Below the pieces are notes generated by a model that saw only the letters and a list, made by a program, of their open reading frames with translations, was not told where the DNA came from and made no database searches. From the NCBI GenBank assembly GCA_965203745.1, contig CBDBDK010000001.1, forward strand, positions 478,180-542,179: a DNA stretch of 64,000 bases, given 5' to 3'. This stretch comes from an uncultured Candidatus Binatia bacterium. GTDB lineage: Bacteria > Desulfobacterota > Binatia > Bin18. Made by a program: the position numbers and the translations under genes. Shown piece by piece: positions 3,368 through 50,971 of the stretch; the first letter of the stretch is position 1, and the number at the start of each line of letters is the position of its first letter.

Positions 3368-4804
3368 ATGCTCGATCTCATCATTAGCGGGGGAACCGTT
3401 GTGACGCCCCACACTACGGCGGAACTGGATGTAGGCGTTACCGGGGAGCATATCGTTGCCGTGGGCCAACCGGGAACCCTGAATGCTTCCGCCGGACGGG
3501 TGATCGACGCAACGGGAAAAATCGTCCTGCCGGGCGGGATTGAGCCCCATGCGCATATCGGTATTCCCGTCCCGCCGGACTGGACCGGCCTGCCGGACGT
3601 GATGACCCAGCCGCCCGAGGCGGCCAGTCGGGCGGCCGCGTTCGGTGGGGTGACGACCATTATTGATTTTGCCGGCGACCTGTCCCGCAAGGCGCTGCGC
3701 GGAGAACGGCGCCGCCCGCTGCTTGAGGTGCTTGAGCGGCGGCGGGCCGTCTTTCGCGACCACTGCTACACGGATTTCGCCTTTCACTACATGCTTGCCG
3801 GGGAATGCGGCCATCAAGCCGCGGGCCAGATTGCCGAGGCCTTACAAGAGGGTGTGGGCAGCTTCAAGATTTTTACCACCACGGAGGTGCGTATCCCGTA
3901 CGGACATCTGTGGGAGATTTTTGCCGAAGTGGCCAAACACGGCGGCATGATGGCCGTCCACGCGGAAGAGGACGAGATCGTGAACTACATGCTTGAGAAG
4001 CTTAAGCGCGAGGGCCGCGACCAAGCCTATAATATGCACCTCGTCCACAACAATCTGTCCGAAGACTTGGCTTTTCGTTCGATCATTCGTCTGGCCGAGC
4101 ACACCGGCACCGGGGTGTATTTCGTCCATACTACGGCCAAGGAAGGCGTGCGCGCCATTGCCGAAGCACGCCAGTCCGGACAGCCCGTATACGGTGAGGC
4201 CCTGCATCACTATCTGCACTTCACCTGTGAAGATTATAAGAAGCCGGACGGCATGGCGGTTCATACCTATCCGGCGCTGAAATTCGCCGACGACCGAGAT
4301 GCTCTGGTGGACGGGTTGCTCGACGGACGTCTGTGCACCACGGCCACGGACGAGTATACGACCTATAAAGGCCCCAAACTGTTCAGCGATCGTATCGAAT
4401 CCATCTGCGGTGGGCATAACGGCATCGAGACGCGCATTCCGGTGGCGTTCACGAAATGTGTGGTCGAACGGGGGATGCCGCTCCAGCGCTTTGCCGCCAT
4501 CATCGCCACCAACGCGGCCAAGATTCTGGGGCTGTATCCGCAAAAGGGCGCCATTCAGCCGGGCAGCGATGCGGACATTGTCCTGCTCGATCCTCAGTTG
4601 ATCAAAACGCTGGCGGTAGAGGATTTGCACGCCGACTCTGACTACAGCATTTGGGAAGGGTTTACCTGCCAGGGCTATCCGGTGATGACGCTCTTGCGTG
4701 GCAAGGTGATTGTCGAAGACGGCAAGCTGGTCGGCCACTCGACGGATGGGCGCTGGCTGAAGCGCAAGGTTGGAGGGGATGTTTTGGCTCGGCCCGCTCT
4801 GTGA
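3368..4804 (+). CDS. Cyclic amidohydrolase (dihydropyrimidinase / D-hydantoinase-like)
   Basis: 478 aa; GGTVV...GGIEPHAHIG metal-binding HxH motif; overall amidohydrolase layout; AGGAGG RBS. Confidence 0.8.
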   Translation: MLDLIISGGTVVTPHTTAELDVGVTGEHIVAVGQPGTLNASAGRVIDATGKIVLPGGIEPHAHIGIPVPPDWTGLPDVMTQPPEAASRAAAFGGVTTIIDFAGDLSRKALRGERRRPLLEVLERRRAVFRDHCYTDFAFHYMLAGECGHQAAGQIAEALQEGVGSFKIFTTTEVRIPYGHLWEIFAEVAKHGGMMAVHAEEDEIVNYMLEKLKREGRDQAYNMHLVHNNLSEDLAFRSIIRLAEHTGTGVYFVHTTAKEGVRAIAEARQSGQPVYGEALHHYLHFTCEDYKKPDGMAVHTYPALKFADDRDALVDGLLDGRLCTTATDEYTTYKGPKLFSDRIESICGGHNGIETRIPVAFTKCVVERGMPLQRFAAIIATNAAKILGLYPQKGAIQPGSDADIVLLDPQLIKTLAVEDLHADSDYSIWEGFTCQGYPVMTLLRGKVIVEDGKLVGHSTDGRWLKRKVGGDVLARPAL

Positions 4805-4827
4805 TGCTATTGTCCGCCTGACAGGCC

Positions 4828-5619
4828 ATGACTACGTGGGACCCGCAACAATATCAGCGCTTTCAAAAGGAACGCGCCCAGCCGTTCTTCGATTTAGTGA
4901 ATCGTCTGCCGGATGGCGAGGTAACAACCGCCGCCGATCTGGGCTGCGGTCCGGGCACGCTCACAGTGACTTTGACCGAACGCTGGCCTCATGCGACCGT
5001 GTGGGGGGTGGATAATTCGCCTCAGATGCTGGCCAAGGCCAGGGCGCTCCCAGCTCAGCCACGGCTGCATTTTGTGGAAACGGATATTGCCGAATGGTCC
5101 CCGCCGCAGCGGCTGGACCGCATCATCTCGAACGCGGCCCTGCACTGGGTGCCCGAGCATCAGGCCGTTTTACGGCGTTTAATCGGCCTGCTGACCCCAC
5201 ACGGCGTGCTGGCCGTACAGATGCCGAACAATCATGCCGAGGCCGCCCACCGGATTCTACGCGAGTCAACGCAGCAAGAGCCGTGGGGGTCGCTGCTGGC
5301 GGACGCTGAAGAGCGCTTTACGCTACAGACTCCCCGCTGGTATGCCCAAACGCTCCACAGCCTCGGGTGTACAGTCCAGGTGTGGGAGACGATTTATTAC
5401 CACCTCTTGTCCGGTGAGAATGCGGTCCTGGAATGGATGAAAGGCACGGCCCTGCGACCGACGCTTGAGCGTTTGGGCCAACGCCTCGGTCAGGACGGGC
5501 AGACCGCATTTCTGTACATGTACGGCCAGAAGCTCGCCCAGGCGTATCCGGCCGGCCCGAACGGGATGCTGTTTCCTTTTCGTCGCCTGTTCTTTATTGC
5601 GCAGCGCGATAAGCCCTGA
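4828..5619 (+). CDS. tam: Trans-aconitate 2-methyltransferase-like SAM-dependent methyltransferase
   Basis: MTTWDPQQYQRFQKERAQPFFDL...DLGCGPGTLT glycine-rich SAM motif; length 263 aa. Confidence 0.75.
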   Translation: MTTWDPQQYQRFQKERAQPFFDLVNRLPDGEVTTAADLGCGPGTLTVTLTERWPHATVWGVDNSPQMLAKARALPAQPRLHFVETDIAEWSPPQRLDRIISNAALHWVPEHQAVLRRLIGLLTPHGVLAVQMPNNHAEAAHRILRESTQQEPWGSLLADAEERFTLQTPRWYAQTLHSLGCTVQVWETIYYHLLSGENAVLEWMKGTALRPTLERLGQRLGQDGQTAFLYMYGQKLAQAYPAGPNGMLFPFRRLFFIAQRDKP

Positions 5620-5714
5620 TAACACTCCGGGCCACCCTGCCACTCACGGAGTCGGCTGAGTCCAGCAAAGCCAGTGAGCGAGCAGTCCACCATCAGCGGT
5701 GTTGAGAGATTATT

Positions 5715-6944
5715 GTGTCAGACAGCACGCACAAACGCGCGATCTTCATTCTGGCCGGGGCGGTGTTTGCCACCATGCTGGGAAACGGCATGGTGATGCC
5801 CTTCATTCCCGTGTATGTCGCACAATTCGGCCTGGGCGGCCTGGGGGCGGGCTTGCTGTTCAGCGTCCATGCCGCCACCCGGACCGTGTTGCTGCCGTTC
5901 ATCGGACGCGCGTCCGACCGCTGGGGCAGACGTGGCTTTCTGCTGATCGGGGTGCTGTTCTACGCCGTGGCCTCCCTGGCCTATCCCCTGGCCGACCGGG
6001 TCGCGGCCTTTGTCGGCATTATGGCGGTCCACGGCACGGGCATGGCCATCGTCCATCTGGTTTCCATGGCCTATGTCGGCGACCTGGCACCGCGTGGTGA
6101 GGAGGGCCGCTATAGCGGGTATATGAATACCGCCCTCCTGGGTGGGATTGCCGGCGGGCCGGTCCTGGGAGGAGTCCTCCGCGACCTGTCTTCCATGTCG
6201 GTCAACTTTCTGACGATGAGTGTCATGAGCGGGGTGTCCTTCCTGTTGCTTGCAGTCCTGCTGTCTCCTGTCGAATCCGTCCGAACCGGACCGAAAAAAC
6301 CCCAGCCAGCCTCCACCACACCCTGGCAATTACTCTCCTGCCGTCCGGTCGTCGGGGTGGCGAGTTTTCGTCTCGCCTATGCGTGTACGAACGCGTTGAT
6401 CTGGATATTCCTGCCGGTCCTGGCTGCCCGGCTGTGGACCTTATCCACAACACAGATCGGGGTGTTAATCTCCGTCAACGTGATGGTCAGCACCGTGCTG
6501 CAAGCCCCCTGCGGCCGGCTGGCCGACCGCAAGCGGAAGGCTGTGCTGATTGCCCTGGGCGGAGTCGGCAGCGCGTTGGCCCTGGCCGCCGTTCCGTTTG
6601 CGACCGTGTTCTGGCAGGTGCTGGCCCTCAATATCTGTATAGGTGCCTGCTATGGTTTGGCCTTCCCGGCCCATACCGCGGTCGGCATGGAGAACGCCGG
6701 TCCATACGGCATGGCCACCGTCATGAGCCTGCTCATGATGGCGCACGGCGCCGGCATGATGGTCGGGCCACTGCTGTTCGGCGCAATTGCGGATCAACTG
6801 AGTCTGGCCTGGGTGTTCTGGGCCGGGGGGCTGATTAACCTCGGCCTGATCATCGCCTGTTGGCTGTTGCTGGTCGGCGCGCCAACCAAACTGGAAGTCG
6901 AACCGCTCCGACCCGTGAACACCGATCCTGTTGAGGCGGACTAA
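5715..6944 (+). CDS. MFS transporter
   Basis: 409 aa, with about 12 hydrophobic segments and an MFS-type GRxxDRxGRR loop (GRASDRWGRRG). Confidence 0.8.
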   Translation: MSDSTHKRAIFILAGAVFATMLGNGMVMPFIPVYVAQFGLGGLGAGLLFSVHAATRTVLLPFIGRASDRWGRRGFLLIGVLFYAVASLAYPLADRVAAFVGIMAVHGTGMAIVHLVSMAYVGDLAPRGEEGRYSGYMNTALLGGIAGGPVLGGVLRDLSSMSVNFLTMSVMSGVSFLLLAVLLSPVESVRTGPKKPQPASTTPWQLLSCRPVVGVASFRLAYACTNALIWIFLPVLAARLWTLSTTQIGVLISVNVMVSTVLQAPCGRLADRKRKAVLIALGGVGSALALAAVPFATVFWQVLALNICIGACYGLAFPAHTAVGMENAGPYGMATVMSLLMMAHGAGMMVGPLLFGAIADQLSLAWVFWAGGLINLGLIIACWLLLVGAPTKLEVEPLRPVNTDPVEAD

Positions 6945-8038
6945 AAGAACTTGATGACGCTCCGGGCCACCCCGCCGCCCTCTTTCAGCAGGTCGTAGGC
7001 CTCGTTGACCTGTTCGAGCGCAAACGTCTTGGAGACCAACTCGTCGATCTTGATCTTTTTATCCATATACATGTCGAGCAGGCGGGGCATATCGACGCGG
7101 GGGCGGGTCGAACCGTAGAATGAACCCTGAAGCCGCTTTTCCATCAGACAAAAGATGTTCGGATTGAGCGAGATGCGCGAACCGTCGGGCGACACGCCGA
7201 CCACCGTGCACACGCCCCCGCGGCCCGTCATCTTGAACGCCAGCTCGATCGTCTTGGGCGAGCTGATGACCTCGAAGGCATAGTCGGCTCCGCGTCCGCC
7301 GGTCAGTTCCATAACCGCCTTGAAGGCGTCGTCCTGGCCGGGGTTGATGGTATGGGTCGCGCCAAAGGTCTTGGCAAACTCCAGTTTCGAGTCGAGCAGA
7401 TCGACCGCAATAACCTGCCGCGCCCCTGCCAGGGCACAGCCCTGAATGACGTTGAGGCCCACGCCGCCACAGCCGATGACCACGGTGGAGGAGCCGGGCT
7501 GAACGTTGGCGGTGTTGACTGCCGCGCCAACCCCGGTCATGGTTCCGCAGCCCACAAAACAGGCCCGGTCAAGCGGAATATCTTCCCGGATCTTGATGGC
7601 GCAGCTCTCGTGGACAACGGCCTCTTCGGCGAACGAGGCCGTGTACGCAAAGTGGAAAACCTCCTCGTTGTTCTTACGCAGGCGCGTTGTCCCGTCCAGG
7701 AGCGTGCCGAGCGCTCTGGGCCGGGTTTCACACAGATGCGGCTGCCCCTGGGTACAATAGTGGCAGGTGCCACAGACAGGATTGAAAGACAGTACGACAT
7801 GGTCGCCCTCTTTGACCGAGGTCACGCCGGCGCCAACCTCGGCTACTACCCCGGCGCCCTCATGCCCCAGAACCATGGGCAGCGGCATCCGCATATCGCC
7901 GGTCATGACGTGCAAATCACTATGACAGGCCCCGTTGGCCGCCACCTTGACCTTGACCTCTCCGGCTTTTGGCGGGTCGATGTGTAAATCTTCAATCACG
8001 AGTGGTTTGTTCGGCTCATATAACACAGCAGCTTTCAT
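6941..8038 (-). CDS. Zn-dependent alcohol dehydrogenase (MDR family)
   Basis: GHEGAGVV and GACHSDLH zinc-ligand motifs; GCGGVG NAD-binding motif. The true start is MKAAVLYE, with a GGAGG RBS; the track ORF is extended upstream to 8122. Confidence 0.85.
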   Translation of the reverse strand: MKAAVLYEPNKPLVIEDLHIDPPKAGEVKVKVAANGACHSDLHVMTGDMRMPLPMVLGHEGAGVVAEVGAGVTSVKEGDHVVLSFNPVCGTCHYCTQGQPHLCETRPRALGTLLDGTTRLRKNNEEVFHFAYTASFAEEAVVHESCAIKIREDIPLDRACFVGCGTMTGVGAAVNTANVQPGSSTVVIGCGGVGLNVIQGCALAGARQVIAVDLLDSKLEFAKTFGATHTINPGQDDAFKAVMELTGGRGADYAFEVISSPKTIELAFKMTGRGGVCTVVGVSPDGSRISLNPNIFCLMEKRLQGSFYGSTRPRVDMPRLLDMYMDKKIKIDELVSKTFALEQVNEAYDLLKEGGGVARSVIKFF

Positions 8039-16457: not shown

Positions 16458-17636
16458 ATGAGGTTCCTCCACACCTCGGACTGGCACGTAGGCCGAACTA
16501 TCCGCAATCGCTCGCGGATGGATGAGCACCGGGCGGTGTTTGCCGAGATTATTGATATCGCTAAGCGCGAGCACATTGATGCCGTCCTGGTGACCGGTGA
16601 CGTCTTTCACGAACGGCGTCCGCCGCTGGCTGCCGAGGAACTGGTGGCGCACACCCTGGCGCAGCTCGCCCGCGATAATATCGTCTCTGTTGTTATTCCC
16701 GGTAACCACGATGACGCCGCCCGCCTGCGCACCCTGAAACCGCTGGGTGATTTGCTTCACGTGCATATGATGACGGACATGAGTGAAACCCCGTCGGACC
16801 TCATTGTCTCCATTCCCCAGCGAACCGGAGGAGAGCGGGCGCTGGTGAGTTGTCTGCCCTATCTGCACCCCCACCGGGTGCTGACGGCGGCCGAAGGAAC
16901 CGACAAAAGCGAGAACGAACGTCTGAGTGTGTACCAGAGCATGGTGCAGGACTATCTGCGCGCCCTGGAGGAAGCGACGCTGCAAATGGACCCCAACGCG
17001 GTGTCCATCCTGCTCGCCCACGCCCATGTTTCCGGGACGGAGTTTGGAGGGGGTGAATGGCGCTCAAGCGTCTTTCCTGTTGATCCTGGCATCTTCCCCG
17101 GTCAGGTACATTATGTGGCCCTGGGGCATATGCATCAGCCCCAAAAGGTGGGCGGGACACGGGCGCAGGCACGCTATGCCGGATCGATCCTGCAAATGGA
17201 CTTTGGCGAGCGGGGCCAGGACAAAAGCGTCTGCCTCATTGAGGCCCATCCGGGGAAACCGGCGGAAGTCTCGCCCATTGCGCTGACTGCAGGGAAATCG
17301 CTGCTACGCCGGACGGGAACCGCCGAAGAAATACTGTCGCAGGCAGAAGAGTTCACCAATGCGTGGGTTGAGGTCGTCTTAAAGCCGGAGGGCCAAACGT
17401 CTGAGCTGATCGAGCAAATTCGGACGCTGCCGGGCGTAGTCTCGTTCCGGTTTGAAGAAATGTCGGCCAGCGATTCCGTCGACGAAACGATCCACAATCC
17501 GAAGGAGCGACCCGCAGCGGAACTTTTCACCGACTATTACAAGTCAAAACGCGGCGCAGAGCCCGAGCCTCAACTTGTAGCCCTGTTTGAGCGGCTGTAT
17601 CAGGAGGTCAGCACCGCGCGGGACGAGCCAGCATAA
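16458..17636 (+). CDS. sbcD: Mre11/SbcD-type DNA repair nuclease (calcineurin-like phosphoesterase)
   Basis: MRFLHTSDWHVG (motif I), TGDVFH (motif II), GNHD (motif III), LAHAHV and GHMH histidine motifs. Confidence 0.9.
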   Translation: MRFLHTSDWHVGRTIRNRSRMDEHRAVFAEIIDIAKREHIDAVLVTGDVFHERRPPLAAEELVAHTLAQLARDNIVSVVIPGNHDDAARLRTLKPLGDLLHVHMMTDMSETPSDLIVSIPQRTGGERALVSCLPYLHPHRVLTAAEGTDKSENERLSVYQSMVQDYLRALEEATLQMDPNAVSILLAHAHVSGTEFGGGEWRSSVFPVDPGIFPGQVHYVALGHMHQPQKVGGTRAQARYAGSILQMDFGERGQDKSVCLIEAHPGKPAEVSPIALTAGKSLLRRTGTAEEILSQAEEFTNAWVEVVLKPEGQTSELIEQIRTLPGVVSFRFEEMSASDSVDETIHNPKERPAAELFTDYYKSKRGAEPEPQLVALFERLYQEVSTARDEPA

Positions 17637-17683
17637 ATAAATGCCAACCCCCAACCCCGAATCCCCAGTCCCCCACTAAAGCC

Positions 17684-20600
17684 ATGCGTCCACAAAAACT
17701 CAGCCTCAAAAATTTCATGCCCTTTCGGGTGACGGGAGATCTGGTCCACGAAGTTGACTTTTCGCAACTCGATCTGTTTTCGATCACCGGCCCGATGGCC
17801 AGCGGCAAGTCCGCACTCATCGATGCCATGGTCTGGTGCCTGTATGGCCGCACCGCACGCTACGGGGCGGATTCAAAAGGCGTGATCTCGACCGGTGAGC
17901 AGACGTGTGAGGTTGCGCTCGACTTTACGCTTGGGCCGCGTTGGTTTCGGGCAGTAAGACGAACGGGGAAGATCACGGACTCCGGTCTCAGCGAAAGCGA
18001 AGGGGAAGAGTGGATACAGGATGTATCCGGGTCCGCGCGGCTCACCGGTCGGATCGAAGAGCTCCTAGGCCTCGATTTTGACAGCTTCACCAAAACAGTT
18101 ATCCTCCCCCAAGGCCGGTATGCCGAATTTCTCACCAGCGAGCCAAAAAAACGGCGCGAATTGCTGGCGAAGATCCTGGAGCTTGGCGTGTACTCCCGGG
18201 TGGCCGACCAGGCCAAGCTTGTAGCCGATCGGGAAAAAACTCGGGCAGAAACGCTACGTGAAACTCTGGCCCAATACGCCGGTCTGAGTCAGGAGCATAT
18301 TGCTCTTCAGAAAGACGAACTTTCCAAGCTCAGCCAACGCATTGAACAGGTTTCTCAGGAGGAGCAATGCTTACGCAATGTGGCTCAACACGTCGACCAA
18401 ATATCGGGCTTACGAAGTCGTGTGACCGAGCTGCAAACTGAGGTGCAGACGCGCACTCAGGAGAAAGAGCTAGCGCAAAGGAAAGCTGATAAGGCGACCG
18501 CCCTGGTTACCAGCCTGACAGATGAATTGGAAAAGGTTGGTCAGGAGCGAGAAGCGTTAGGATACGACACGGCGAGGCACGAGGTTGTCAAACGGGCTTC
18601 TGAACATCTTGCGGCCTGGATGGCTGCTCAAACGGAAGCCGAGCGGAAAAAGACTGAACGGGCCGCTGTCCAGGGAGAAGTTGACACCCTTGTACAACAG
18701 ATCAAATCCCACACGCGGCAGGTCGAGCAGGCTCAGTCTCAACATCAGGACTACGCCATTAGGTTTGAGCAGCTTGTTGTCGAAGCCGGTGACGTGACCA
18801 CACTGACGGAAAAGCTCGGCGCAGCAAAACGCTGGAAAGAGCTGCAACAGGAACAGCGGCAACTGGCCTCTCGGATAGAAGACCTACGCCAGAACCACAC
18901 CGCTATCCAACACCGTCTGGACGACCTGAAGCGGCAAGATGTAAGCTGCGAGCAGACCGTTCGAGAACTGAAAGACAAGTTCGAAAGAACAAAAGAAGAC
19001 GAACGGCAGAAACGCCAACTGATCGATGAAGCCGAACGTCTGGACCGAGAACTGCACGAGGCGACTGAGGCGGAAGAGCGAGTCAGGGCCGAACTTGAGG
19101 CTACCCGTACTACGCTCATCCAAGCGGAACATACAGCCCAGCAGGTTCATCAGGCGCTCGTCCAATCCGAAGAACAGGAGCAAGCGGCCCGCACCGCGCT
19201 TGAAGACAACCAACGCAGGCACGAAGCCGCCCACCTGCGGGCCACGCTTCACATTGGCGATACCTGCCCCGTGTGTCAGGCAACCGTCAACGAAATTCCT
19301 GCGGCTCAAGAAGCAGGGGAGGATTTGAAGGAACTCCAGGCTCAAATGGAGCGGGTCACACAGGTCGCCCAACAAAGACGCACGGCAGCGCAAGAAGCAG
19401 ACACCACGGTTGCCACATGCAGGGCGCGGCTTGATGCTGCGGAGCAAGGGCTAAAGGAACGTGAACGCCTCAGGCAGGAAGTCCAAGACCAATTCGGGCT
19501 ACGTTTCCCCGGCTATGCGTCTCCTCCTGAAGCCCTTCAGTCTGTACAGGTCCAGCACGGAGAACTGAGCGCAGCGCTCAAAGACCTGGAAGCTCAGGTC
19601 ATATCCGCCGAGCAGGAAAAAGCGAGGCTGTCAGGCCAACGCGAAGCCGCACAACAAGAAGAGGCAACGCTCACTGAAGCGCTGCGTGGGACAACTGAAA
19701 GGCTAGAGGCTGATATCCGCGAGTTAGATGTGCTCGGACGTGAGATTGCTGCGTTTCTCGCTACTAATGGTGACCCTGAGCAGAGTGTGGCACAACGCCG
19801 GACTACGGTGATGCGGGCTGAGCAACAAATGAAGGAGGCGGAGAGAGCCTTGCGTCAACTCGATTCGACGCTCAACTCACTGAAAACAACCCAGGTCCAG
19901 AAAGATGGCGACCTCAAATTGCTTACCGCTGAGTACGAGGGTACGTTGCTCAGAGCCGAGCGCGAAGCGCAGGCCGTACGTACCTGCCTTGGTCTGGCGG
20001 AAGACGCGGTGCTGCCGCAGACCGAAGACGTAGAAAGTGAACTCAAAGCGCTGTCAGACAAGCAAACCCGGCATGCAGATTTGTTACATCGCGAAGAAAA
20101 CGCACGGGCGAGGCGAGAACAGGCCGGACGCCAGGCCACCGCATCACAGGCCGACCTTCAGGCCCGAACGCAAATGTTGGAAGAGTCACACAAGAAGCGG
20201 CAACAGGTGTCCGACACGCTGGCAGAGGAGTGGGAAAAGCTTCGTGGGCTGATCGAGCAACACAACCTCACTGACGCCGGAGAGGATGGAGAGCAGATCA
20301 AGCCCCAACTTGAAACGGTTCGGGGACAGATGATGTCTCTCCAAGAACAACGTGGACGTTTAGAGGCGGAACATGCCGAAGCTGAACGTCGTTGGCAGGA
20401 GAAAGAGCAAGAAGAAGAAAAGCTGCACGCCGCACAGAGTGAAGCACGTCTGGCCTCGGACCTGCGTAAGCTCCTGGGTTCGGAATTTACCGATTTCTTG
20501 TCGCGGGGAGCCATAGAGGCTCTGATGCGTGACGCGTCCGCTCACCTGCAACGCCTCACCCACGGGCGATATGTGTTTGATATTGCGTATCGGGGGCGGG

Positions 20601-20965
20601 CGATCACACTCCAAATTGTCGACCACGAGGATCAGCGCCGCGCCCGGCCCACCCATTCGCTGTCGGGCGGAGAAACGTTTTTAGCCTCGCTCGCTATTGC
20701 ACTCGCTCTGTCGCAAGGGTTTCGGACCGTGGCGACCGGCCGGGCGGCCCAGACCTCGACCGAATGCCTGATTCTGGATGAAGGCTTCGGGACGCTGGAC
20801 CGAGAAGGGGTGCAGATGGTCACGGAGACCCTGCAAGAGTTGCGGGGCGAAGACGGCCGGATGGTAGGCATTATTACCCATGTCGAAGAAGTCGCTGCGG
20901 CTATGCCCATGCGCATAGAAGTGCGCAAAGGTGGCAGGACGAGCGAGATTACGGTATCAGGCTAA
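17684..20965 (+). CDS. sbcC: Rad50/SbcC-type SMC-like ATPase
   Basis: 1093 aa; N-terminal Walker A GPMASGKSALIDAM; very long Glu/Gln/Arg-rich coiled coil; central zinc-hook CPVC (nt 19264-19275); C-terminal signature SLSGGETFLASLAIALAL and Walker B CLILDEGFGTLD. Confidence 0.9.
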   Translation: MRPQKLSLKNFMPFRVTGDLVHEVDFSQLDLFSITGPMASGKSALIDAMVWCLYGRTARYGADSKGVISTGEQTCEVALDFTLGPRWFRAVRRTGKITDSGLSESEGEEWIQDVSGSARLTGRIEELLGLDFDSFTKTVILPQGRYAEFLTSEPKKRRELLAKILELGVYSRVADQAKLVADREKTRAETLRETLAQYAGLSQEHIALQKDELSKLSQRIEQVSQEEQCLRNVAQHVDQISGLRSRVTELQTEVQTRTQEKELAQRKADKATALVTSLTDELEKVGQEREALGYDTARHEVVKRASEHLAAWMAAQTEAERKKTERAAVQGEVDTLVQQIKSHTRQVEQAQSQHQDYAIRFEQLVVEAGDVTTLTEKLGAAKRWKELQQEQRQLASRIEDLRQNHTAIQHRLDDLKRQDVSCEQTVRELKDKFERTKEDERQKRQLIDEAERLDRELHEATEAEERVRAELEATRTTLIQAEHTAQQVHQALVQSEEQEQAARTALEDNQRRHEAAHLRATLHIGDTCPVCQATVNEIPAAQEAGEDLKELQAQMERVTQVAQQRRTAAQEADTTVATCRARLDAAEQGLKERERLRQEVQDQFGLRFPGYASPPEALQSVQVQHGELSAALKDLEAQVISAEQEKARLSGQREAAQQEEATLTEALRGTTERLEADIRELDVLGREIAAFLATNGDPEQSVAQRRTTVMRAEQQMKEAERALRQLDSTLNSLKTTQVQKDGDLKLLTAEYEGTLLRAEREAQAVRTCLGLAEDAVLPQTEDVESELKALSDKQTRHADLLHREENARARREQAGRQATASQADLQARTQMLEESHKKRQQVSDTLAEEWEKLRGLIEQHNLTDAGEDGEQIKPQLETVRGQMMSLQEQRGRLEAEHAEAERRWQEKEQEEEKLHAAQSEARLASDLRKLLGSEFTDFLSRGAIEALMRDASAHLQRLTHGRYVFDIAYRGRAITLQIVDHEDQRRARPTHSLSGGETFLASLAIALALSQGFRTVATGRAAQTSTECLILDEGFGTLDREGVQMVTETLQELRGEDGRMVGIITHVEEVAAAMPMRIEVRKGGRTSEITVSG

Positions 20966-37702: not shown

Positions 37703-39094
37703 GTGAAAGTGGTCATTATCTGGCTGGGAATGGTTGGCCTCTTGGCAGTTTCTCATATTTCTTGGGCGGCCGTCCTGGAAAGCCCGAACCAGGGAGTGAA
37801 CCTGTCAGGTGTTGGTTTTATCTCCGGGTGGAAATGTGATGGAACCAACATCACCGTTACCATTAATGGAGGAGAGCCTCTTCCCGTCGCCATGAACCAG
37901 GAACGAGCGGATCTTATTGAAGTCTGCAAAGGAACTATCCATCACGGGTTTATTATGCAGATCAATTGGGCCAGGCTGGGGGATGGGGAGCACGAAGTGA
38001 TTGCTTATGATGAGGGGGTGGAGTTTGGCCGTGCGGAGTTTGCTGTGGGGACATTGGGTGAGGAATTTCCAAAACATTTAGAACGACGAATCACAGTTGA
38101 TGGATTTCCTTCCCTGAATGAGAAGACAGTGCTTGAGTGGAATGAGAGCACCCAACATTTTGAAGTTGTTACTTTAGAGCCAAGCAGTTTAGCAAATGAA
38201 TATGACGAAGACTTTTGGAACGATTTTAATAGAACTTACTTAGCAGGAGCCCTTTGGAACACAGGGCGTTTATACGCTGAGATTCCGAATGTGAGTAACT
38301 GCCAAGCCGGACAATTAACAGAAGCAGCTAAAAACCGGGCACTGGAGGTAGCCAATCAAATTCGAGCCTTACATGGTTTATCCCCCCTCAGGTATGTCGC
38401 TTTCTATGACAGTCAAATGCAAAAAGCCAGCCTCATTCAAGAAGCAAATAATTATGGGGACCACAATCCCCCTCCCAGTCTTAAATGCTATACCGAAGAA
38501 GGAAGGGAAGGTAGCGCAACAAGTAACATTTCTCTTAGCTCTGCCAACCTTGATCCAGGGGCTCATATCATGCATCTGACGAATGACGCTAATCCCGCAA
38601 ACCTACCCTCTGCTGTAGGGCACCGCCGTTGGATACTCAACCCTTTCACCACCAGCTTTAGTTATGGTCAAGTGGGAAAGTACGCCACACAGAAAGTCAT
38701 TGGCTTCTTACAAGAATATGCCCTTACCCCAAAAATCAATATTAATTTTGTCGCTTTTCCTTATGAAACTTATCCTTCCAATCTCCTTAGGGAGGATCCT
38801 CCATGGAGCTTCAGTATAATCGTAGATAAGAAAAACCTGCAGAACAATCAAGGTGACTTTTTCCGAAATGCAAGCATCACTGTCACACGTGTTTCTGACG
38901 AAGCACAGTTGCCAATTTACAACCGATATACAGACACTGTTGGATATGGATTACCCAACTTTATCAGTTGGCAGGTTGAGGGATGGGAATACGATACTTT
39001 ATACGAAGTGGACATTAAAAATGTCGTACTTAGTGATGGAACCACCAAAGATTATTCCTATTCGGTTTTCATTAAAAAAGAGCACATTGATTAA
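37703..39094 (+). CDS. Secreted protein with CAP/SCP (PR-1-like) domain; low G+C
   Basis: Signal peptide MKVVIIWLGMVGLLAVSHISWA. EVANQIRALHGLSPL and GHRRWILNPFTTSFSYGQVG resemble the CAP HNxxR and GHYTQVVW motifs. Codon usage is A/T-rich, unlike neighbouring genes. Confidence 0.5.
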   Translation: MKVVIIWLGMVGLLAVSHISWAAVLESPNQGVNLSGVGFISGWKCDGTNITVTINGGEPLPVAMNQERADLIEVCKGTIHHGFIMQINWARLGDGEHEVIAYDEGVEFGRAEFAVGTLGEEFPKHLERRITVDGFPSLNEKTVLEWNESTQHFEVVTLEPSSLANEYDEDFWNDFNRTYLAGALWNTGRLYAEIPNVSNCQAGQLTEAAKNRALEVANQIRALHGLSPLRYVAFYDSQMQKASLIQEANNYGDHNPPPSLKCYTEEGREGSATSNISLSSANLDPGAHIMHLTNDANPANLPSAVGHRRWILNPFTTSFSYGQVGKYATQKVIGFLQEYALTPKININFVAFPYETYPSNLLREDPPWSFSIIVDKKNLQNNQGDFFRNASITVTRVSDEAQLPIYNRYTDTVGYGLPNFISWQVEGWEYDTLYEVDIKNVVLSDGTTKDYSYSVFIKKEHID

Positions 39095-44365: not shown

Positions 44366-45430
44366 ATGAAATTCGCTATTCTCTATAACACCGACTATTA
44401 CCCCGACATCCACGGCTCGGCCGAGCAGTATTATAACCATATTCTGGAACAGGTCGAACTGGAGGAAGAACTCGGCTTTGACGCGGTCTGGTTTGGCGAG
44501 CACCACTACTCGGGCTATTCGTTCGGGTCGCCGCCGGTCATGGCTATGGCGGCCGCCGGCCGGACCAAACGCATTCGGCTCGGGACCGGCATCTCCCTGG
44601 TGCCACTCAATAATCCTATCCGACTGGCCGAAGAGTACGCCATGGTCGATGTGCTCTCCGGCGGCCGTCTGGAGTACGGCATCGGTAGAGGTTTTCTGAA
44701 ATACTCGCATAAAATTTTTGGCGTGGACGAAGCGGAGAATACCGAGCGCTATCACGAGGGGACGGATATTATCTGTCAAGCCTGGACGAGTACGCAGCCC
44801 TTCTCGTATCGCGGCAAATTCTGGGAACTCGAAGACTACACGTTTTTCCCCAGCCCCTTACAAAAGCCCCACCCGCCCATTTACGCTTCCGGGGCGATTA
44901 CGCCCGAGAGTTATCAGTGGGCCGGTCAGCGGGGCTTTCATTTGGCGACCGCCTTTTTCCTCCCCAACCAGGAACACGTCCAGGAGTGTATCGGCCTCTA
45001 CCGTCAAGCGCTCCGGGAAAACAACCATGAGCCGGCCACCCGTGATGTCGCTGGCGTGTATCAGATGTATTGTGGTGAATCGAACGAAGAAGCCCGGCGC
45101 AACGGCGGTCAGCACGCGCTGACGTACTATGCCTTCTTTGGGGCCCTGGCCCAGCGTGGCGCCTTAACCTCTCAGTCGTTCGCCTACCACAAAGGAACGA
45201 TCTCGCATCTCTTTGCCGGGCTGACCTTCGAAGACCTGGACAAGCGCAACTTGGTCCTGGTTGGCGACCCGGATAATCTGATTGAGCGTATCCGCTGGGC
45301 CAAAGAGTTCTACGGTACGAACTATCTGATTCTTGAAATCGCCCAAGGCGGCATGAAGCACGAACATGTCATGCCCTCGCTCGAACGCTTTGCCAAATAT
45401 GTCATGCCCGTATTTCGGGATGAGGAATGA
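44366..45430 (+). CDS. LLM-class flavin/F420-dependent oxidoreductase
   Basis: LGFDAVWFGEHH...GRLEYGIGRG. Confidence 0.8.
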   Translation: MKFAILYNTDYYPDIHGSAEQYYNHILEQVELEEELGFDAVWFGEHHYSGYSFGSPPVMAMAAAGRTKRIRLGTGISLVPLNNPIRLAEEYAMVDVLSGGRLEYGIGRGFLKYSHKIFGVDEAENTERYHEGTDIICQAWTSTQPFSYRGKFWELEDYTFFPSPLQKPHPPIYASGAITPESYQWAGQRGFHLATAFFLPNQEHVQECIGLYRQALRENNHEPATRDVAGVYQMYCGESNEEARRNGGQHALTYYAFFGALAQRGALTSQSFAYHKGTISHLFAGLTFEDLDKRNLVLVGDPDNLIERIRWAKEFYGTNYLILEIAQGGMKHEHVMPSLERFAKYVMPVFRDEE

Positions 45431-45599
45431 GGTATCTCCTCCTCAAAGGGGCGGCGCGTGAGCGCCGGGGTGGGCTCCCTCTCCTCCCGGTCTCTTGCTA
45501 TATGCCCCTAAAATATGAAAGAGTCGGTGCATCCGCCTGCCAGCGGTACGGGCGGGGCAATCTCAAACCGTAAGAACGAGGAAAAAGGGAGGACTGCAT

Positions 45600-46895
45600 A
45601 TGCATATTATGTCTTTCTCGGAACGTGAATACGTCGATGTCTCCGAGGATGCAATCATCGAAAACGGGAGTAGCTATTTTGGCCTTCCCAATACGATGTT
45701 TGATGCCGACCGGGGCGGCCAGCTCATGAATGAATATCTGGACGAGCGGATCTACGCCGAAGAGCTGGGCTTTGACGGTGTCATGCTCAACGAGCACCAC
45801 CAGACCCCGTTTTGTGGTGGTGGGGTCATGGATGTGGAAGCCGCTATTCTGGCCCGGATCACCAAGCGGGTGAAAATTGTCCTGCTCGGCAACCCCCTCC
45901 CGGTGGGCGATCCGCTGCGACTGGCGGAAGAGCTGGCCACGATTGATATGATTTCCGGTGGCCGTCTGGTACCGGGCTGGGTGCGTGGTGCGGGCACGGA
46001 ACAACTCGCCAATAACATCAACCCGGCCTACAATCGGGAGCGCTTTAACGAAGCCCATGACTTTATTCAACAGGCGTGGACGAAGCCGGGACCGTGGCGT
46101 TACGAGGGCAAACACTATCACTACCGAAACGTCAATCCCTGGCAGTTGCCGGTTCAGAAGCCGGTGCCGCAACAGTGGATTCCGGGGTTGATCAGCCCGG
46201 AAACCGTCATCTGGAGCGCTAAACATCGCTATCCCTATGTGGCGCTCGGCACCAATGTCGAATCCACGGTTGAGATGGTGAATCTGTACGCCGATGTCGC
46301 CGAGCAGGAAGGCTATCAGGCCGGACCGGAGAACTTCGGTTATCTGCAGAACGTGTGTGTGGCCGAGACGGAGGAGAAGGCGCATGAGTTGGCCCGGGGC
46401 TTTGTCTTTGGCGGTGGATTCGGCTCGTTTGCCCGTGCCGAGTGGATGTTTCCTCCGGGATATAACTCCAAGGCCGCAACCAAGCGTCTGGCGCAAGCCC
46501 TGACCGATCCGCGCACCGGCGCCGAAATCATCAAGCATACTCAGGGTGAGATTGACGTCGAAGAAATCAAGCGGAGCATTGAATCGGGTTTCCAGGCCTC
46601 GCTCGACAGCGATCTGATTATGGCCGGTACACCGGAGACGGTCATGAAAAAGCTGCGGAAAATGTGCGAAACCCTCCGACCCGGTATCATGGGCCTGTGG
46701 TATCACCACGGTCCGATGAGTTTCGAGCAGCGTAAGACCTGCCTGCGTCTGCTTGGCCAGGAAGTCCTGCCGGCCATGCGTGAGATGGCCAAAGAGCTCG
46801 ACCTGCCCGGACCGTTTGAGGTAACGCCGGGTTCGCGGTCGCTGCCGGCCTCCGGCAAGCGCGAACAGATCGTGCCCGATATCGCCGCGGCTTAA
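45600..46895 (+). CDS. LLM-class flavin/F420-dependent oxidoreductase
   Basis: LGFDGVMLNEHHQ...GGRLVPGWVRG; GGGAGG RBS. Confidence 0.8.
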   Translation: MHIMSFSEREYVDVSEDAIIENGSSYFGLPNTMFDADRGGQLMNEYLDERIYAEELGFDGVMLNEHHQTPFCGGGVMDVEAAILARITKRVKIVLLGNPLPVGDPLRLAEELATIDMISGGRLVPGWVRGAGTEQLANNINPAYNRERFNEAHDFIQQAWTKPGPWRYEGKHYHYRNVNPWQLPVQKPVPQQWIPGLISPETVIWSAKHRYPYVALGTNVESTVEMVNLYADVAEQEGYQAGPENFGYLQNVCVAETEEKAHELARGFVFGGGFGSFARAEWMFPPGYNSKAATKRLAQALTDPRTGAEIIKHTQGEIDVEEIKRSIESGFQASLDSDLIMAGTPETVMKKLRKMCETLRPGIMGLWYHHGPMSFEQRKTCLRLLGQEVLPAMREMAKELDLPGPFEVTPGSRSLPASGKREQIVPDIAAA

Positions 46896-46980: not shown

Positions 46981-47061
46981 TTTAGTGAAAGCCCATGAGG
47001 CTATGATAATAATCCCAGTAGCCACGAATGGCGCTCTCGGTTAAGAGATTCTCCTGATTCT
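46981..47061. repeat. 81-bp direct repeat, copy A (a duplicate of the 3' end of the Rieske oxygenase gene)
   Basis: Identical at all 81 positions to 49562-49642. Confidence 0.9.
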
Positions 47062-47117
47062 GTTTTTCTGTGCTACTGATTAGCACTGACACACCGAATA
47101 ACAGTGCAGGGCAACCC

Positions 47118-47432
47118 ATGCTGAGATTAACCGATCAGGAAAAGCAGGAGATTCTCCGATTTCTGGAAGCAGACCGGGAATTACCGGAGAAATACCGTTT
47201 CCTGCTATTCAAGGACAAGCGCGAGGTCGAGTTGGTCTGGAACGGCAAGACCAACGAGGTCTGCAATATCGTACTGCCGTTTCAGACTATTGAGCATGTC
47301 GACGAGCCACGGGCGGAGAAGCCACAAGACACCAAGGCTCAGATGGCGCTCTTCGATGAACGGGGCCGACAACTGCGAGGCTGGACCAATAAACTCAAAA
47401 GGTGGTGGATATCTTCGGCAATGACACCATGA
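47118..47432 (+). pseudogene. N-terminal fragment of an N6-adenine DNA methyltransferase (type III Mod / type IIG-like)
   Basis: VELVWNGKTNEV and GWTNKL match the conserved LxWxGK ... NxLIxGDN N-terminal blocks of these MTases. The ORF stops after 105 aa, before any catalytic DPPY/NPPY region. Confidence 0.4.
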
Positions 47433-47451: not shown

Positions 47452-48324
47452 GTGAGGTTCGTCCTGCCGACAATCCGGCACAACCGGAGAGGGTTTGCGG
47501 CGCTCGCGACCCTTCATGCGCAAACCGAGCACTGTTTTGTCGATGATGTCGAGATCGACATGCGGTCAACGAACCGGTTCGACGGCGATATGTGCGCAGC
47601 GTTTGGCGCGATTCTGTACAGCCTGGGAGCCAGTCTGAATACCATCAGTTTGACGAATATCAATTCCAAAGTAGAGAAGATTCTTTCTAAAAACGGCTTC
47701 CTCAGCCACTATGGAGGACAGGAAATGCCCAACCTTCGGGAAACGGCCGATTTCTACGAACGATTCGACATTGGGGACGACCGCTATTTCTCCGCTTATA
47801 TTGAGCGTGGGCTTATCCGTCGTCCTGAAGTGCCAGAGATGTCCGCAGGGTTATTAAAAAAGTTCCGCGAGAGCATCTTCGAGATCTTCAGCAATGCCGT
47901 GCTACACTCTCGCACTGAACTGGGCATTTTCAGTTGTGGACAGTTTTTTCCCGACAGGAACCGACTCGATTTTACTGTGGCCGATCTGGGTATCGGTATC
48001 CGAAAGAATATCTACAACAGTCTCCAGCAAGACTTGTCTCCGGTGGACGCCATCATCTGGGCGACTCAGGAGCACAATACGACCAAACGTGGTAGAGTTC
48101 CCGGTGGACTGGGGCTAACGCTGCTTAGCGAGTTCATCGACCTGAACGGCGGCTGTATTCGGATAGTGTCTGACGCTGGATATTGGCGGCGCAAAAACAA
48201 GCGGACCAAGACGGCTCTATTGGACCAGCCATTTCCAGGGACAGTCGTTAGCGTGGAAATCAACACAGCGGACGACCGCTCTTACAGACTCATTTCAGAA
48301 TTCGAAGATGACGAAATCTTCTAA
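47452..48324 (+). CDS. GHKL-superfamily (histidine-kinase-like / RsbW-like) ATPase
   Basis: N box FSNAVLHS, G1 box VADLGIGI, G2 box GGLGLTL. Confidence 0.65.
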   Translation: MRFVLPTIRHNRRGFAALATLHAQTEHCFVDDVEIDMRSTNRFDGDMCAAFGAILYSLGASLNTISLTNINSKVEKILSKNGFLSHYGGQEMPNLRETADFYERFDIGDDRYFSAYIERGLIRRPEVPEMSAGLLKKFRESIFEIFSNAVLHSRTELGIFSCGQFFPDRNRLDFTVADLGIGIRKNIYNSLQQDLSPVDAIIWATQEHNTTKRGRVPGGLGLTLLSEFIDLNGGCIRIVSDAGYWRRKNKRTKTALLDQPFPGTVVSVEINTADDRSYRLISEFEDDEIF

Positions 48325-48334
48325 GGGATTTCCC

Positions 48335-48700
48335 ATGAGCACAGACGTTGCAGTATCCATATTCGAGGTCGTCGGGAGCCCCTTATGTGTCGCATCGGGC
48401 GATGGCCAGAAGGTACACGACCGTATCGCCGCCTTATTGGAACAAGACCAGCGTGTCTTGCTCTCGTTCCGTAATGTGTCCACGCTGACATCGGCATTTC
48501 TCAACACGGCGATCGGCCAATTATATGGCACCTTCACCGAAGACCGGATTCGGGCTTTACTGACGGTGAAAGACATGGAAGCCGATGATGTTGCCCTGTT
48601 AAGGCGGGTTGTTGATACGGCCAAGCGATACTTTCAAGACCCGGAGAGATTCAACAATGTGGTGCGGGATGTGCTGGAGGATGACGGCGATGGCACATAA
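48335..48700 (+). CDS. STAS-like (DUF4325-like) small protein
   Basis: About 120 aa; VLLSFRNVSTLTSAFLNTAIGQLY pattern; AGGGA RBS 8 nt after the upstream stop. Family assignment is from memory and tentative. Confidence 0.45.
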   Translation: MSTDVAVSIFEVVGSPLCVASGDGQKVHDRIAALLEQDQRVLLSFRNVSTLTSAFLNTAIGQLYGTFTEDRIRALLTVKDMEADDVALLRRVVDTAKRYFQDPERFNNVVRDVLEDDGDGT

Positions 48701-49223
48701 CGTTTCACATGTCGAGCGTTACGACTTCACGTCCGGGGATGCATTATTTTTAGATACCAATATCTGGTTATTTATCTACGGCCCACAAGACCCCGCTAGC
48801 ACTCAAATGTATGCATACTCCTCGGCGTTTCGTCACATCCTGGAAGCGCAAAGCCGTATCTATATCGATGCTCTTGTCATTTCGGAATTTATTAACGCCT
48901 ACGCTCGGCAGCAATGGCACCTTGTTGCACCCAATACGAGGTTCAAGGAGTTCCGCAACAGTCCACGCTTCAAGCCGGTCGCTCGAGAAATAGCCGACAA
49001 TACCAAGCGAGTGCTGAACCACTGCTCGCGGGTCGAAAGTCACTTTGAGACGTTGGACGTAGATGGCTTGATGAACGAGTATGCGGAGGGCGGTGCCGAT
49101 TTTAATGACCAGGTTATCAGGGAGTTGTGTAACAGCCGAGGCTTGAAGCTGGTCACAGATGACGGCGATTTCGATGGGCAAGGAATATCCATAATAACAG
49201 CAAACAGGCGCTTATTGGGCTGA
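48690..49223 (+). CDS. PIN-domain nuclease
   Basis: LFLDTNIWLF (first catalytic Asp), further acidic positions, C-terminal LVTDDGDF. The ATG overlaps the upstream stop (ATGGCACATAA). Confidence 0.7.
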   Translation: MAHNVSHVERYDFTSGDALFLDTNIWLFIYGPQDPASTQMYAYSSAFRHILEAQSRIYIDALVISEFINAYARQQWHLVAPNTRFKEFRNSPRFKPVAREIADNTKRVLNHCSRVESHFETLDVDGLMNEYAEGGADFNDQVIRELCNSRGLKLVTDDGDFDGQGISIITANRRLLG

Positions 49224-49227
49224 TTCC

Positions 49228-49506
49228 ATGGCGCTGCATATCGACTTCCCCGATTCTCCCCATACCATTCTTGACCCCGAGCTTCGTTGGTTTCCCGCGG
49301 ATGAAACTCTGCGTGCGACGGGCTCTGGGCCGAAAACGCCACTGATGGTGGAGGTCGATAACGACAATACAATTAAGGACATCGACGCCTTGGATATTGA
49401 GATTCCGATACTGACGCCGCGAGCCTATCGAGAATATAAGCATCTGTTTTTGTCGATGACGTTGGGTTTGAAAAGTATAAGCCCAAGACCTTTGACGCGC
49501 TATTAG
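49228..49506 (+). CDS. Hypothetical small protein (92 aa), the last gene of the cassette operon
   Basis: Starts 4 nt after the PIN stop. No motif recognised. Confidence 0.3.
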   Translation: MALHIDFPDSPHTILDPELRWFPADETLRATGSGPKTPLMVEVDNDNTIKDIDALDIEIPILTPRAYREYKHLFLSMTLGLKSISPRPLTRY

Positions 49507-49561
49507 CCGGGTTTCGCGATTATCAATCAGACGTGGCAGAGTGACGGGTTTCCAATGCAGA

Positions 49562-49642
49562 TTTAGTGAAAGCCCATGAGGCTATGATAATAATCCCAGT
49601 AGCCACGAATGGCGCTCTCGGTTAAGAGATTCTCCTGATTCT
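49562..49642. repeat. 81-bp direct repeat, copy B (the genuine 3' end of the Rieske oxygenase gene)
   Basis: Reverse complement translates to ...NQENLLTESAIRGYWDYYHSLMGFH*. Confidence 0.9.
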
Positions 49643-50822
49643 CTCTTCCCGTACCACCGAAGGCGAGCAGGGAGCATTCGTCCTTTTCCTGGGCGATAGC
49701 CTGTTGGACCAATTCGGTGGCGTAGCCATCTTCCATGGAGATGTAGCCGGCCGGACCGACCAGATTGGCCTGCTTGATGCGGATGCGGCGGATTTCTTCG
49801 TCATCATCTTCATAGCCAAAGAATGTAAATAACAGTTCAAACTGATCCGGTCCCTTGGGCAGAATATGTCGGGTTGCCAGCGTGTTTTGAATCTGCTGGA
49901 CGACCAGGCACGGAAAAATCATCTGGATGTGATTGGTTAATTCCACCTCGAATTCTTTGCGCGAGGTGAGGAGCGAGGGGTCGGCTAAGGTGTAGTCCGT
50001 CTGGTAACTGCGGATGTTCTTGCCCGTGTAGGCGGCCACCTCTTCCTGTTCCGTCTTTTTATACGCGCGCAGCATGCTGTGGCGGCCCGCCGCGTCCATA
50101 ATGACCCCACCCCCTTGGGACGAACGATAGATACCAAAAGTGGTGTGAAAAAGGTGCAGCAGACTGGCGTGATAGGGGTCTTTGACATTCTCCGAGTAGA
50201 GTTTCCAGTTGGCATGAACGAACTGGCGGGCGTAGCCCAGCACCTGGACCGGTCGGTTGAAGACCCGGTCGAGCCACGGCCGCATGGCCGGGCCCAGATA
50301 GTCGGCCAGCGGTTCAACCTCGGAAGAAAAGGAGGCAAAGATCAGCCCGTTATAGGTATCCACGCGTAGTTTACGGAGGGAGTGCTGGGCGAGATCAAAG
50401 TCCGCCGGGTACCCGCCCTGGCGGCGAATGCCGGTCCGAAACGGAACCCCAATCAGATCGCCCTGCTGGTTATAACTCCACTGGTGGTAGATGCAGGTAT
50501 GGGTGGCCCGATTACCCCGAGACTCGCGACACACCAGTGCCCCGCGATGCGCGCACCGATTCACAAAGGCGTGCAGCTTCCCCGCTTTGTCGCGCGATAC
50601 GACGACGGGCGTGGCGCCGACAAAGGTGGAGCGGAAATCGCCGGGGTTGGCAACCTCCGCTTCGAGCCCTACATAGCTCCAGGTTGGACCTCTGAAGATG
50701 CGTTCTTGTTCCAGGTTGTAGACGGCAGGATCGCAAAAGACCTGATACGGGACTGAGGTTATCCCCGCTGTCGTCGGCCATCTCAACGCGACGGGCGCAT
50801 TGTCCATGGGTGAAAGGCTCAT
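49563..50822 (-). CDS. Rieske non-haem-iron aromatic-ring-hydroxylating oxygenase, alpha subunit
   Basis: CAHRGALVC...CIYHQWSY Rieske CxH...CxxH motif. Start at MSLSPMDNAP, with an AAGGAGG RBS. Confidence 0.85.
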   Translation of the reverse strand: MSLSPMDNAPVALRWPTTAGITSVPYQVFCDPAVYNLEQERIFRGPTWSYVGLEAEVANPGDFRSTFVGATPVVVSRDKAGKLHAFVNRCAHRGALVCRESRGNRATHTCIYHQWSYNQQGDLIGVPFRTGIRRQGGYPADFDLAQHSLRKLRVDTYNGLIFASFSSEVEPLADYLGPAMRPWLDRVFNRPVQVLGYARQFVHANWKLYSENVKDPYHASLLHLFHTTFGIYRSSQGGGVIMDAAGRHSMLRAYKKTEQEEVAAYTGKNIRSYQTDYTLADPSLLTSRKEFEVELTNHIQMIFPCLVVQQIQNTLATRHILPKGPDQFELLFTFFGYEDDDEEIRRIRIKQANLVGPAGYISMEDGYATELVQQAIAQEKDECSLLAFGGTGRENQENLLTESAIRGYWDYYHSLMGFH

Positions 50823-50971
50823 CCTGGCACCTCCTTGATAAGCGCTTTTCTCCTCCCACTTCCTCTCCCTAGTAGACACTGGTTTGTGTCGATTGACAAG
50901 CCATATTTGAGGCGCGTATACGAGGAGCAGGGATGCTGTCCCAACAGGCTCTGGGAGAAAAGGGAGGACCT

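Follow-up and report, generated by a model that had tools for sequence, protein, structure and literature searches.

The 64,000-nucleotide stretch of DNA analyzed here (the window) comes from an uncultured Candidatus Binatia bacterium (GenBank assembly GCA_965203745.1, contig CBDBDK010000001.1, forward-strand positions 478,180 to 542,179). Between positions 47,452 and 49,506, it carries four closely packed open reading frames (ORFs) on the plus strand, which an initial annotation, made from the letters alone, took for a candidate new defence operon composed of a GHKL ATPase, a STAS-like protein, a PIN nuclease, and a small protein. The ORF listing contains all four where that annotation had placed them, and of the spacings it gave, the 11-nt overlap between the second and third ORFs and the 4-nt gap before the fourth stand, while the gap between the first two measures 10 nt instead of 8 nt. 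Three of the four are real genes, which we call vapK, vapS, and vapC after VapKSC, the toxin-antitoxin system to which we assign them below. An in-frame ATG lies further upstream of vapS, at 48308, and homologues are annotated at 121 aa. The GC content is 0.51 over 47-50 kb against ∼0.58 on either side.

Table 1. Features of the vapKSC locus and its surroundings (window coordinates)
Feature	Coordinates	Strand	Description
left direct repeat copy	46981..47079		99 nt; copy of the terminal 27 codons plus stop of the Rieske oxygenase gene; left cassette edge
mod remnant	47118..47432	+	Mod aa 1-93, then a frameshifted tail past a 1843-bp internal deletion
vapK	47452..48324	+	290 aa; GTG start; GGAGG 6 nt upstream
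vapS	48335..48700	+	121 aa; putative DUF4325/STAS antitoxin; predicted phospho-acceptor Ser53 (T52-S53) and conserved C-terminal region, probably inhibitory
vapC	48690..49223	+	177 aa; putative PIN-domain RNase toxin; first 11 nt overlap the end of vapS
res remnant	49228..49526	+	Res aa 1-31 joined in frame to aa 565-606, followed by aa 864-892 in a different frame
right direct repeat copy	49562..49660		authentic 3′ end of the gene encoding the Rieske ring-hydroxylating oxygenase (49563-50879, minus strand); right cassette edge

The domain assignments of the initial annotation hold for all three gene products. The middle protein, VapS, is a DUF4325 protein on profile search (Pfam, E = 8.7e-16), and VapC matches Pfam PIN (E = 4.6e-9). 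The match of the vapK product to Pfam HATPase_c (E = 2.5e-4, 21.9 bits) lies below the Pfam gathering cutoff of 26.4; its N, G1, and G2 boxes (E144/N148, D178xG180xG182, and G218-G221) are invariant across the family, and the protein is modeled as an N-terminal STAS domain with a predicted SpoIIAB/RsbW-like kinase fold. The PIN active site is conserved in an alignment of 81 homologues, in which the acidic residues D22, E66, D140, and D158 are at least 90% conserved and D137 and D160 are conserved as well, and the VapC of the window shows zero deviations across the 50 columns conserved to at least 90%. T52 and S53 of VapS reach the same level in 85 homologues, as do its C-terminal residues 85-106 in the homologue alignment, and neither VapS nor VapC has a private change at any such column. 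Conservation is strongest in VapK, where 131 of the 290 columns are at least 90% conserved. Measured against L004, the metagenomic contig with the closest VapK homologue (P0001, 93% identity), the ratio of nonsynonymous to synonymous substitution rates (dN/dS) is below 1 for all three genes (vapK 0.44, vapS 0.23, vapC 0.13).

Searches with the NCBIfam and PADLOC v2.0 profiles gave no meaningful family match for the three proteins because both libraries are older than the description of VapKSC. A weak DrmA match (E = 8.5e-4) spans the GHKL fold only, and the NCBIfam VapC model scores the PIN protein below significance (E = 0.13). The gene upstream of vapC matched no DNA-binding family in Pfam or NCBIfam, being STAS/DUF4325.

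The vapKSC operon was defined, besides the CapK/CapS DNA-damage switch, by Chambers, Rani, Min, Villa, and Corbett (EMBO J 2026; PMC13373217), in a bioRxiv preprint of February 2026 and a journal article of June 2026. In their account, VapK combines a STAS domain with a GHKL kinase, VapS is a STAS domain with a short C-terminal helix, and VapC is a PIN toxin; the authors list 289 vapKSC operons and solved the crystal structure of VapS2VapC2 (PDB 9z7o). The Escherichia VapC is toxic, and the toxicity is gone with D28A. VapS rescues cells from VapC unless its C-terminus is deleted or it carries the phosphomimetic S48E; a phosphomimetic at this conserved Ser abolishes binding and releases VapC. 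The operon of Escherichia sp. E4736 gives ∼2-log protection against one phage, Bas42, and this needs VapC D28, VapS S48, and VapK F54; the last residue is implicated in binding of single-stranded DNA (ssDNA), and F54A abolishes the defence (PMC13373217).

Each protein of the window aligns with its Escherichia counterpart. VapS matches PDB 9z7o_A (phmmer E = 2.1e-15, query 7-116 on chain 21-128), with S53 on chain residue 66, which is the native S48 after an 18-residue tag. VapC matches PDB 9z7o_C (E = 1e-5, residues 4-175), with D22 on the catalytic D28 and the remaining acidic residues aligned too. The Escherichia VapK sequence was recovered from the authors' AlphaFold 3 file, and the VapK of the window matches it with E = 8e-26 over 276 residues (hhalign, 99.7%). 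The triad has a single-STAS VapS, a phospho-acceptor Ser, a PIN domain with the catalytic Asp, a STAS plus GHKL kinase with the active-site Asn, and the K-S-C order. The authors' Dataset EV3 also includes genomes of the window's own clade, namely, Nitrosomonas nitrosa Nm90 (L040) and a Zetaproteobacteria metagenome-assembled genome (L079). From this sequence evidence, we judge with a probability of about 0.85 that the triad is a VapKSC toxin-antitoxin/abortive-infection module which has stayed intact after the restriction-modification (R-M) operon that carried it decayed.

The initial annotation had recognized no described system that couples such a kinase/antagonist pair to a PIN effector. 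That statement has been overtaken: VapKSC was published in 2026, and the PIN-DUF4325 linkage had been recorded in 2017 as subfamily PIN.4 (Matelska et al., NAR; PMC5499597), a bioinformatic note only, to which we liken the PIN protein of the window by linkage and not by cluster membership. The model it proposed, a defence or addiction role in which the STAS protein sequesters PIN until a trigger makes the kinase release it, is essentially the published one (PMC13373217). VapKSC is already described, and only the Type III R-M-embedded context and the decay series presented below are new. Recognizing the apparent new defence class as a known one spares redundant discovery effort.

What surrounds the triad is best seen by comparison with the syntenic contig L004 (in both, genes for an amidohydrolase and two luciferase-like monooxygenases precede the cassette). 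L004 has a five-gene operon encoding an N6_N4_Mtase protein of 726 aa, an ATPase of 290 aa, a DUF4325 protein of 121 aa, a PIN protein of 180 aa, and a ResIII protein of 892 aa. The first of these, Mod, matches PADLOC MTase_III (E = 7e-117) as well as Pfam N6_N4_Mtase, and the last, Res, has Pfam ResIII, a C-terminal endonuclease domain, and a PADLOC REase_III match (E = 1.6e-22). Given the MTase_III and REase_III matches, the operon is a Type III R-M system into which three genes have been inserted, between mod and res. When the window is aligned to it by blastn, 1843 bp are missing from the interior of mod (L004 8104-9946), and ∼1.6 kb and then ∼0.8 kb are missing from res. The surviving N-terminal piece of Mod is 95% identical (tblastn); as called mechanically, the ORF of the mod remnant starts at 47070, runs for 120 aa, and has no Pfam match. 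The window holds neither a functional Mod nor a functional Res but only fragments of both, while the syntenic loci L004 and L005 keep intact mod and res around the same triad.

The fourth ORF of the initial annotation, 92 aa long (49228-49506), runs through the first two Res pieces (tblastn with the L004 Res). We rejected it as a novel small partner, as it is composed of Res fragments and has no Pfam, NCBIfam, or PADLOC match; what had been counted as an operon component is a res pseudogene remnant. The earlier description of a mobile cassette beside a methyltransferase remnant, which is what is left of mod after loss of 1.8 kb, is better put as a Type III R-M cassette with both R-M genes gutted by internal deletions.

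The edges of this cassette are marked by a pair of 99-nt direct repeats (Table 1). The reverse-complement translation of the left copy matches the C-terminus of the oxygenase (...ENLLTESAIRGYWDYYHSLMGFH, then stop). The first 81 of the 99 nt are identical between the two copies in the window. The same pair flanks the cassette in L004 and L005, where the copies have diverged (80/99 and 76/99 identical), and the difference suggests gene conversion between the repeats in the lineage of the window. The repeats could also mediate precise excision of the cassette. The arrangement matches "insertion with long target duplication", which has documented precedents among R-M units of types I-IV (PMC2853133). 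Synonymous divergence (dS) of the window from L004 is 0.07-0.21 for the vapKSC part of the cassette (47452-49223) and 0.35-0.48 for the flanking luciferase-like genes (44366-46895), which hints that the cassette may have been exchanged between the two lineages more recently than their chromosomes diverged.

Carriage of the window's clade by phages or plasmids was considered and rejected, as a search of IMG/VR gave no close relatives. Only distant ones were found on mobile elements, as an HTH-K-S-PIN arrangement on Deinococcus plasmid P5 and as a K-S pair without PIN in Streptococcus prophages. In Streptococcus phage Javan172 (L086, 3983-5261), a distant VapK-like ATPase and DUF4325 pair without PIN lies near the repressor/integrase region, and a pair of the same kind is similarly placed in the Francisella prophage KIRK (Fhv_0046/0047; PMC7924643). 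Such kinase-STAS pairs of temperate phages may serve other effectors or act as regulators.

Next, we surveyed related loci (159), with 80 taken from contigs of one genome per species and 80 from metagenome contigs. An exact-sequence look-up of the VapK of the window gave no match, and the analysis started from VapK homologues at 73-93% identity; throughout the surveyed loci, VapK is at least 58% identical. The lineages belong to more than 10 phyla and include Binatia, Acidobacteriota, Nitrosomonas, Poribacteria, Chloroflexota, Nitrospirota, Thermodesulfobacteriota, Leptospirales, and Legionellaceae, among others, with Binatia as the probable host group of the window (77% to L005). The triad forms a unit far beyond chance: wherever there was enough sequence, all three genes are present, in 76/76 loci from genomes and 60/60 from metagenomes (136/136). 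Four loci have the gene order permuted to S-C-K, and seven have the order res-mod-K-S-C.

The R-M genes are a frequent but variable companion. In 40/76 genome and 31/63 metagenome loci, about half of each set, a full or remnant Type III mod frame runs up to the vapK start, and a res N-terminus follows vapC in 21/72 and 20/47, respectively; the embedded triads usually lie between the two R-M genes. Of 73 loci with a mod C-terminus directly before vapK, 71 have the vapK start codon and the mod stop overlapping (NTGA), and where res is present, the gap after vapC is usually 1-18 nt. Among the 59 genome loci with long flanks, 19 have both R-M genes at full length, 17 have partial or remnant genes, and 23 have no trace of mod or res. 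Since the triad is kept in the 17 partial and 23 trace-free loci, R-M loss with retention of the triad is recurrent. The neighbours of triads without mod or res are mostly housekeeping genes (PGI, amidase, FtsH, ABC transporter). We considered whether another type of R-M system surrounds these triads and rejected it, as only one, L070 from a Pyrinomonadaceae genome, abuts such an enzyme. There, vapKSC lies directly beside a 1077-aa Type ISP/IIG enzyme (3761-6994; Type_ISP_C, N6_Mtase) in place of a Type III mod, an arrangement which suggests that the triad can ride with other R-M types.

Taken with the published work, the locus suggests the following mechanism. VapC, a PIN RNase, would be the toxin, and VapS would be its protein antitoxin, with the STAS face binding VapC and the C-terminal helix placed near the VapC active site. 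VapK, a STAS plus GHKL Ser kinase, is presumed to be an ssDNA-activated sensor. On DNA damage or phage infection, VapK is thought to bind ssDNA at the STAS/kinase interface, and the activated kinase would phosphorylate the conserved serine of VapS (Ser53 here), which is predicted to lie in the VapS-VapC interface. The complex with phosphorylated VapS would then dissociate, and free VapC would cut RNA and arrest the cell. In this lineage, the module was probably brought in as the cargo of a mobile Type III R-M operon (mod-vapK-vapS-vapC-res) that appears to have inserted at the 3′ end of the oxygenase gene with the 99-nt target duplication, and later internal deletions would have destroyed mod and res while leaving the triad intact. 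The mod promoter region still precedes the triad, which also has a ribosome-binding site of its own. As for restriction, ssDNA from the processing of Res-cut DNA would activate VapK, an idea that extends the authors' own suggestion for CapKS (PMC13373217). The sequence itself establishes the homology, the conserved catalytic and phospho-acceptor positions, the domain folds, the gene order, and the R-M context with its decay; that the window copy is active, that its VapK is an ssDNA-activated kinase, and that it is functionally coupled to restriction we infer.

The decay series also fits a different account, in which the triad is mainly an addiction module that stabilizes the R-M cassette or itself by post-segregational killing, so that its persistence is selfish retention. 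In its favour are the always-intact triads beside partial or remnant mod and res genes (17 of the 59 informative genome loci) or with no trace of them (23), the mobile cassette, the long target duplication, the wide horizontal spread, and the lower dS of the cassette relative to its flanking genes. Yet a simple addiction module would need no 290-aa sensor kinase, and VapK is the most conserved of the three proteins; moreover, the ∼2-log protection by the Escherichia homologue depends on the ssDNA-site residue of VapK (PMC13373217). We consider addiction as the main role unlikely, though it retains appreciable weight. The two roles are compatible and not mutually exclusive.

Several observations weigh against an intact and active VapKSC in the window. 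The mod frameshift broke the translational coupling between mod and vapK. VapK carries two private substitutions, D94N and T99A, both at positions that 92-100% of homologues conserve, and its dN/dS is the highest of the three genes. VapK position 42, which aligns with Escherichia F54 in an ungapped segment of low identity, is Arg in the window, where the family has Trp (W in 78, R in 5, and Y in 2 of 85 homologues). VapK is only 26% identical to the Escherichia VapK that was tested, and even for that protein, which proved insoluble, the case for kinase activity and for activation by ssDNA comes from AlphaFold 3 models and the phenotypes of mutants (PMC13373217). We rejected the W42R change as a sign of sensor decay, as the intact L004 system also has Arg42 and Arg or Tyr recurs in five other loci, unrelated lineages included.

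The first two of these observations, with the kinase dN/dS and the gutting of both R-M genes by deletions, are also what would be expected if the window copy were a decaying relic that lost its function after the mod and res deletions and perhaps persists only as a VapS/VapC pair that is lethal to lose. Against this stand the three full-length frames with their catalytic, ATP-binding, and phospho-acceptor residues intact, the lack of private deviations in VapS and VapC, and the retained GGAGG ribosome-binding site of vapK. The triad-only state, with or without scraps of mod and res, occurs in about half of the 159 loci across many phyla, and the triad is always intact, which argues for selection maintaining a stand-alone triad. 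We therefore regard a relic as improbable. A further reading, in which VapK and VapS mainly regulate the neighbouring Type III R-M genes and PIN plays a secondary part, much as CapK and CapS control downstream operons, is very improbable. In its favour, vapKSC is located inside the mod-res operon, and CapK/CapS, the paralogues of VapK/VapS, form a transcriptional switch that is often found beside R-M operons (88 of 443 directly follow one; PMC13373217). Against it, VapS (121 aa, STAS and a short helix) has no winged helix-turn-helix (wHTH) and can be aligned along essentially its full length with the Escherichia VapS that binds VapC; the triad is no less conserved in loci that lack R-M, and PIN is present in every locus.

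The Res protein of the carrier belongs to a very large and highly conserved family with more than 8000 matches, of which the best 120 listed are all at least 80% identical and come from many phyla. Four members were sampled (L167, L168, L169, and L170). L167-L169 have plain mod-res with a 4-nt overlap, and L170 has a 36-aa ORF and a KilA-N protein between mod and res (junction ∼7001). Two vapKSC-bearing loci hold further insertions: in L017 (3070-4691), two SLATT/DUF4231 proteins flank a ThsB-like TIR protein between res and mod, and in L030 (8815-10814), an AAA_15/AAA_21 (OLD/AbiEii-like) ATPase and a 200-aa protein lie between vapC and res. The mod-res junction thus appears to be a general cargo slot for abortive-infection-type genes and not specific to vapKSC. 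The VapKSC paper and its Dataset EV3 make no mention of Type III R-M embedding, and the PADLOC table has no RM_type_III entry, even for Nm90, whose locus in our analysis reads mod-K-S-C-res; R-M is mentioned there for capKS only (PMC13373217).

We tentatively propose, while holding it to be somewhat short of an even bet, that VapKSC is a dedicated backup passenger of the mod|res slot, which is cotranscribed and translationally coupled with mod, fires on ssDNA from restriction or its failure, and outlives its R-M host since a kinase-gated toxin-antitoxin is hard to lose. If true, the window represents the end state of a recurrent process in which R-M decays and the abortive-infection cargo is retained. 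Both the embedding and the decay series are absent from the VapKSC paper. The R-M-embedded clade would provide a natural system for testing restriction-generated DNA damage as the trigger of VapK and for studying layered defence, with R-M first and abortive infection second, in one operon.

Compared with the VapKSC of Escherichia sp. E4736, the window has the same three homologous proteins in the same order, with the VapS Ser, the VapC Asp, and the kinase Asn conserved. The two differ in that identity is only ∼26-30%, in the F54 equivalent, which is Trp in the window's clade and Arg in the window, and in that the clade often sits between Type III mod and res, the window copy being in a decayed R-M shell. 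CapK/CapS is alike in that a STAS plus GHKL kinase phosphorylates the conserved Ser of a STAS partner, in ssDNA as the activating signal, and in its association with R-M and defence; CapK W68 is the aromatic counterpart of Escherichia VapK F54 at the predicted ssDNA site (PMC13373217). Unlike in the window, CapK has an extra N-terminal HTH and CapS is a wHTH transcriptional repressor, whereas the STAS partner here would target PIN and has no DNA-binding domain. SpoIIAB/SpoIIAA and RsbW/RsbV differ further, as VapK carries its own STAS sensor domain and the released partner would be a STAS-held nuclease and not a kinase-held sigma factor; no sigma factor or PP2C phosphatase is present in the cassette, which consists of mod, K, S, C, and res only.

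With type II VapBC, VapKSC shares a PIN RNase toxin and an antitoxin protein that acts by direct binding and is encoded just upstream in an overlapping gene. The VapKSC antitoxin is a STAS protein, however, and not a DNA-binding VapB (AbrB, RHH, PHD/YefM, etc.), and VapS leaves the active-site Mg2+ in place, with release by phosphorylation instead of antitoxin proteolysis (PMC13373217). PrrC in the EcoprrI Type Ic R-M system and the BREX backup RNases resemble the embedded clade as latent RNases inside an R-M operon that form a second, suicidal line of defence (PMC1484252, PMC12707154, PMC12839542). PrrC is held silent by physical contact with the R-M enzyme, and its trigger is an anti-restriction peptide, whereas VapKSC brings an antitoxin and a kinase sensor of its own and remains intact where the R-M genes are gone; its coupling to restriction is presumptive.

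Two further features of the window lie away from the cassette. The lowest GC content of the window (0.44 vs ∼0.58) is found at 37703-39094 on the plus strand, in a 463-aa ORF whose hydrophobic N-terminus suggests a signal peptide. This ORF has no Pfam match at E ≤ 0.001, and it is possibly a horizontally acquired secreted protein. At 16458-20965 (plus strand), a 392-aa ORF is followed by a gene for a 1093-aa SbcC/Rad50-like ATPase (AAA_23, SbcC_Walker_B), and the related locus L003 has a 392-aa SbcD-like (Metallophos) gene adjoining a 1093-aa SbcC-like gene. The AT skew of +0.21-0.28 at 18-21 kb coincides with the SbcC/Rad50-like gene and looks ordinary, and coiled-coil coding bias could be its cause.

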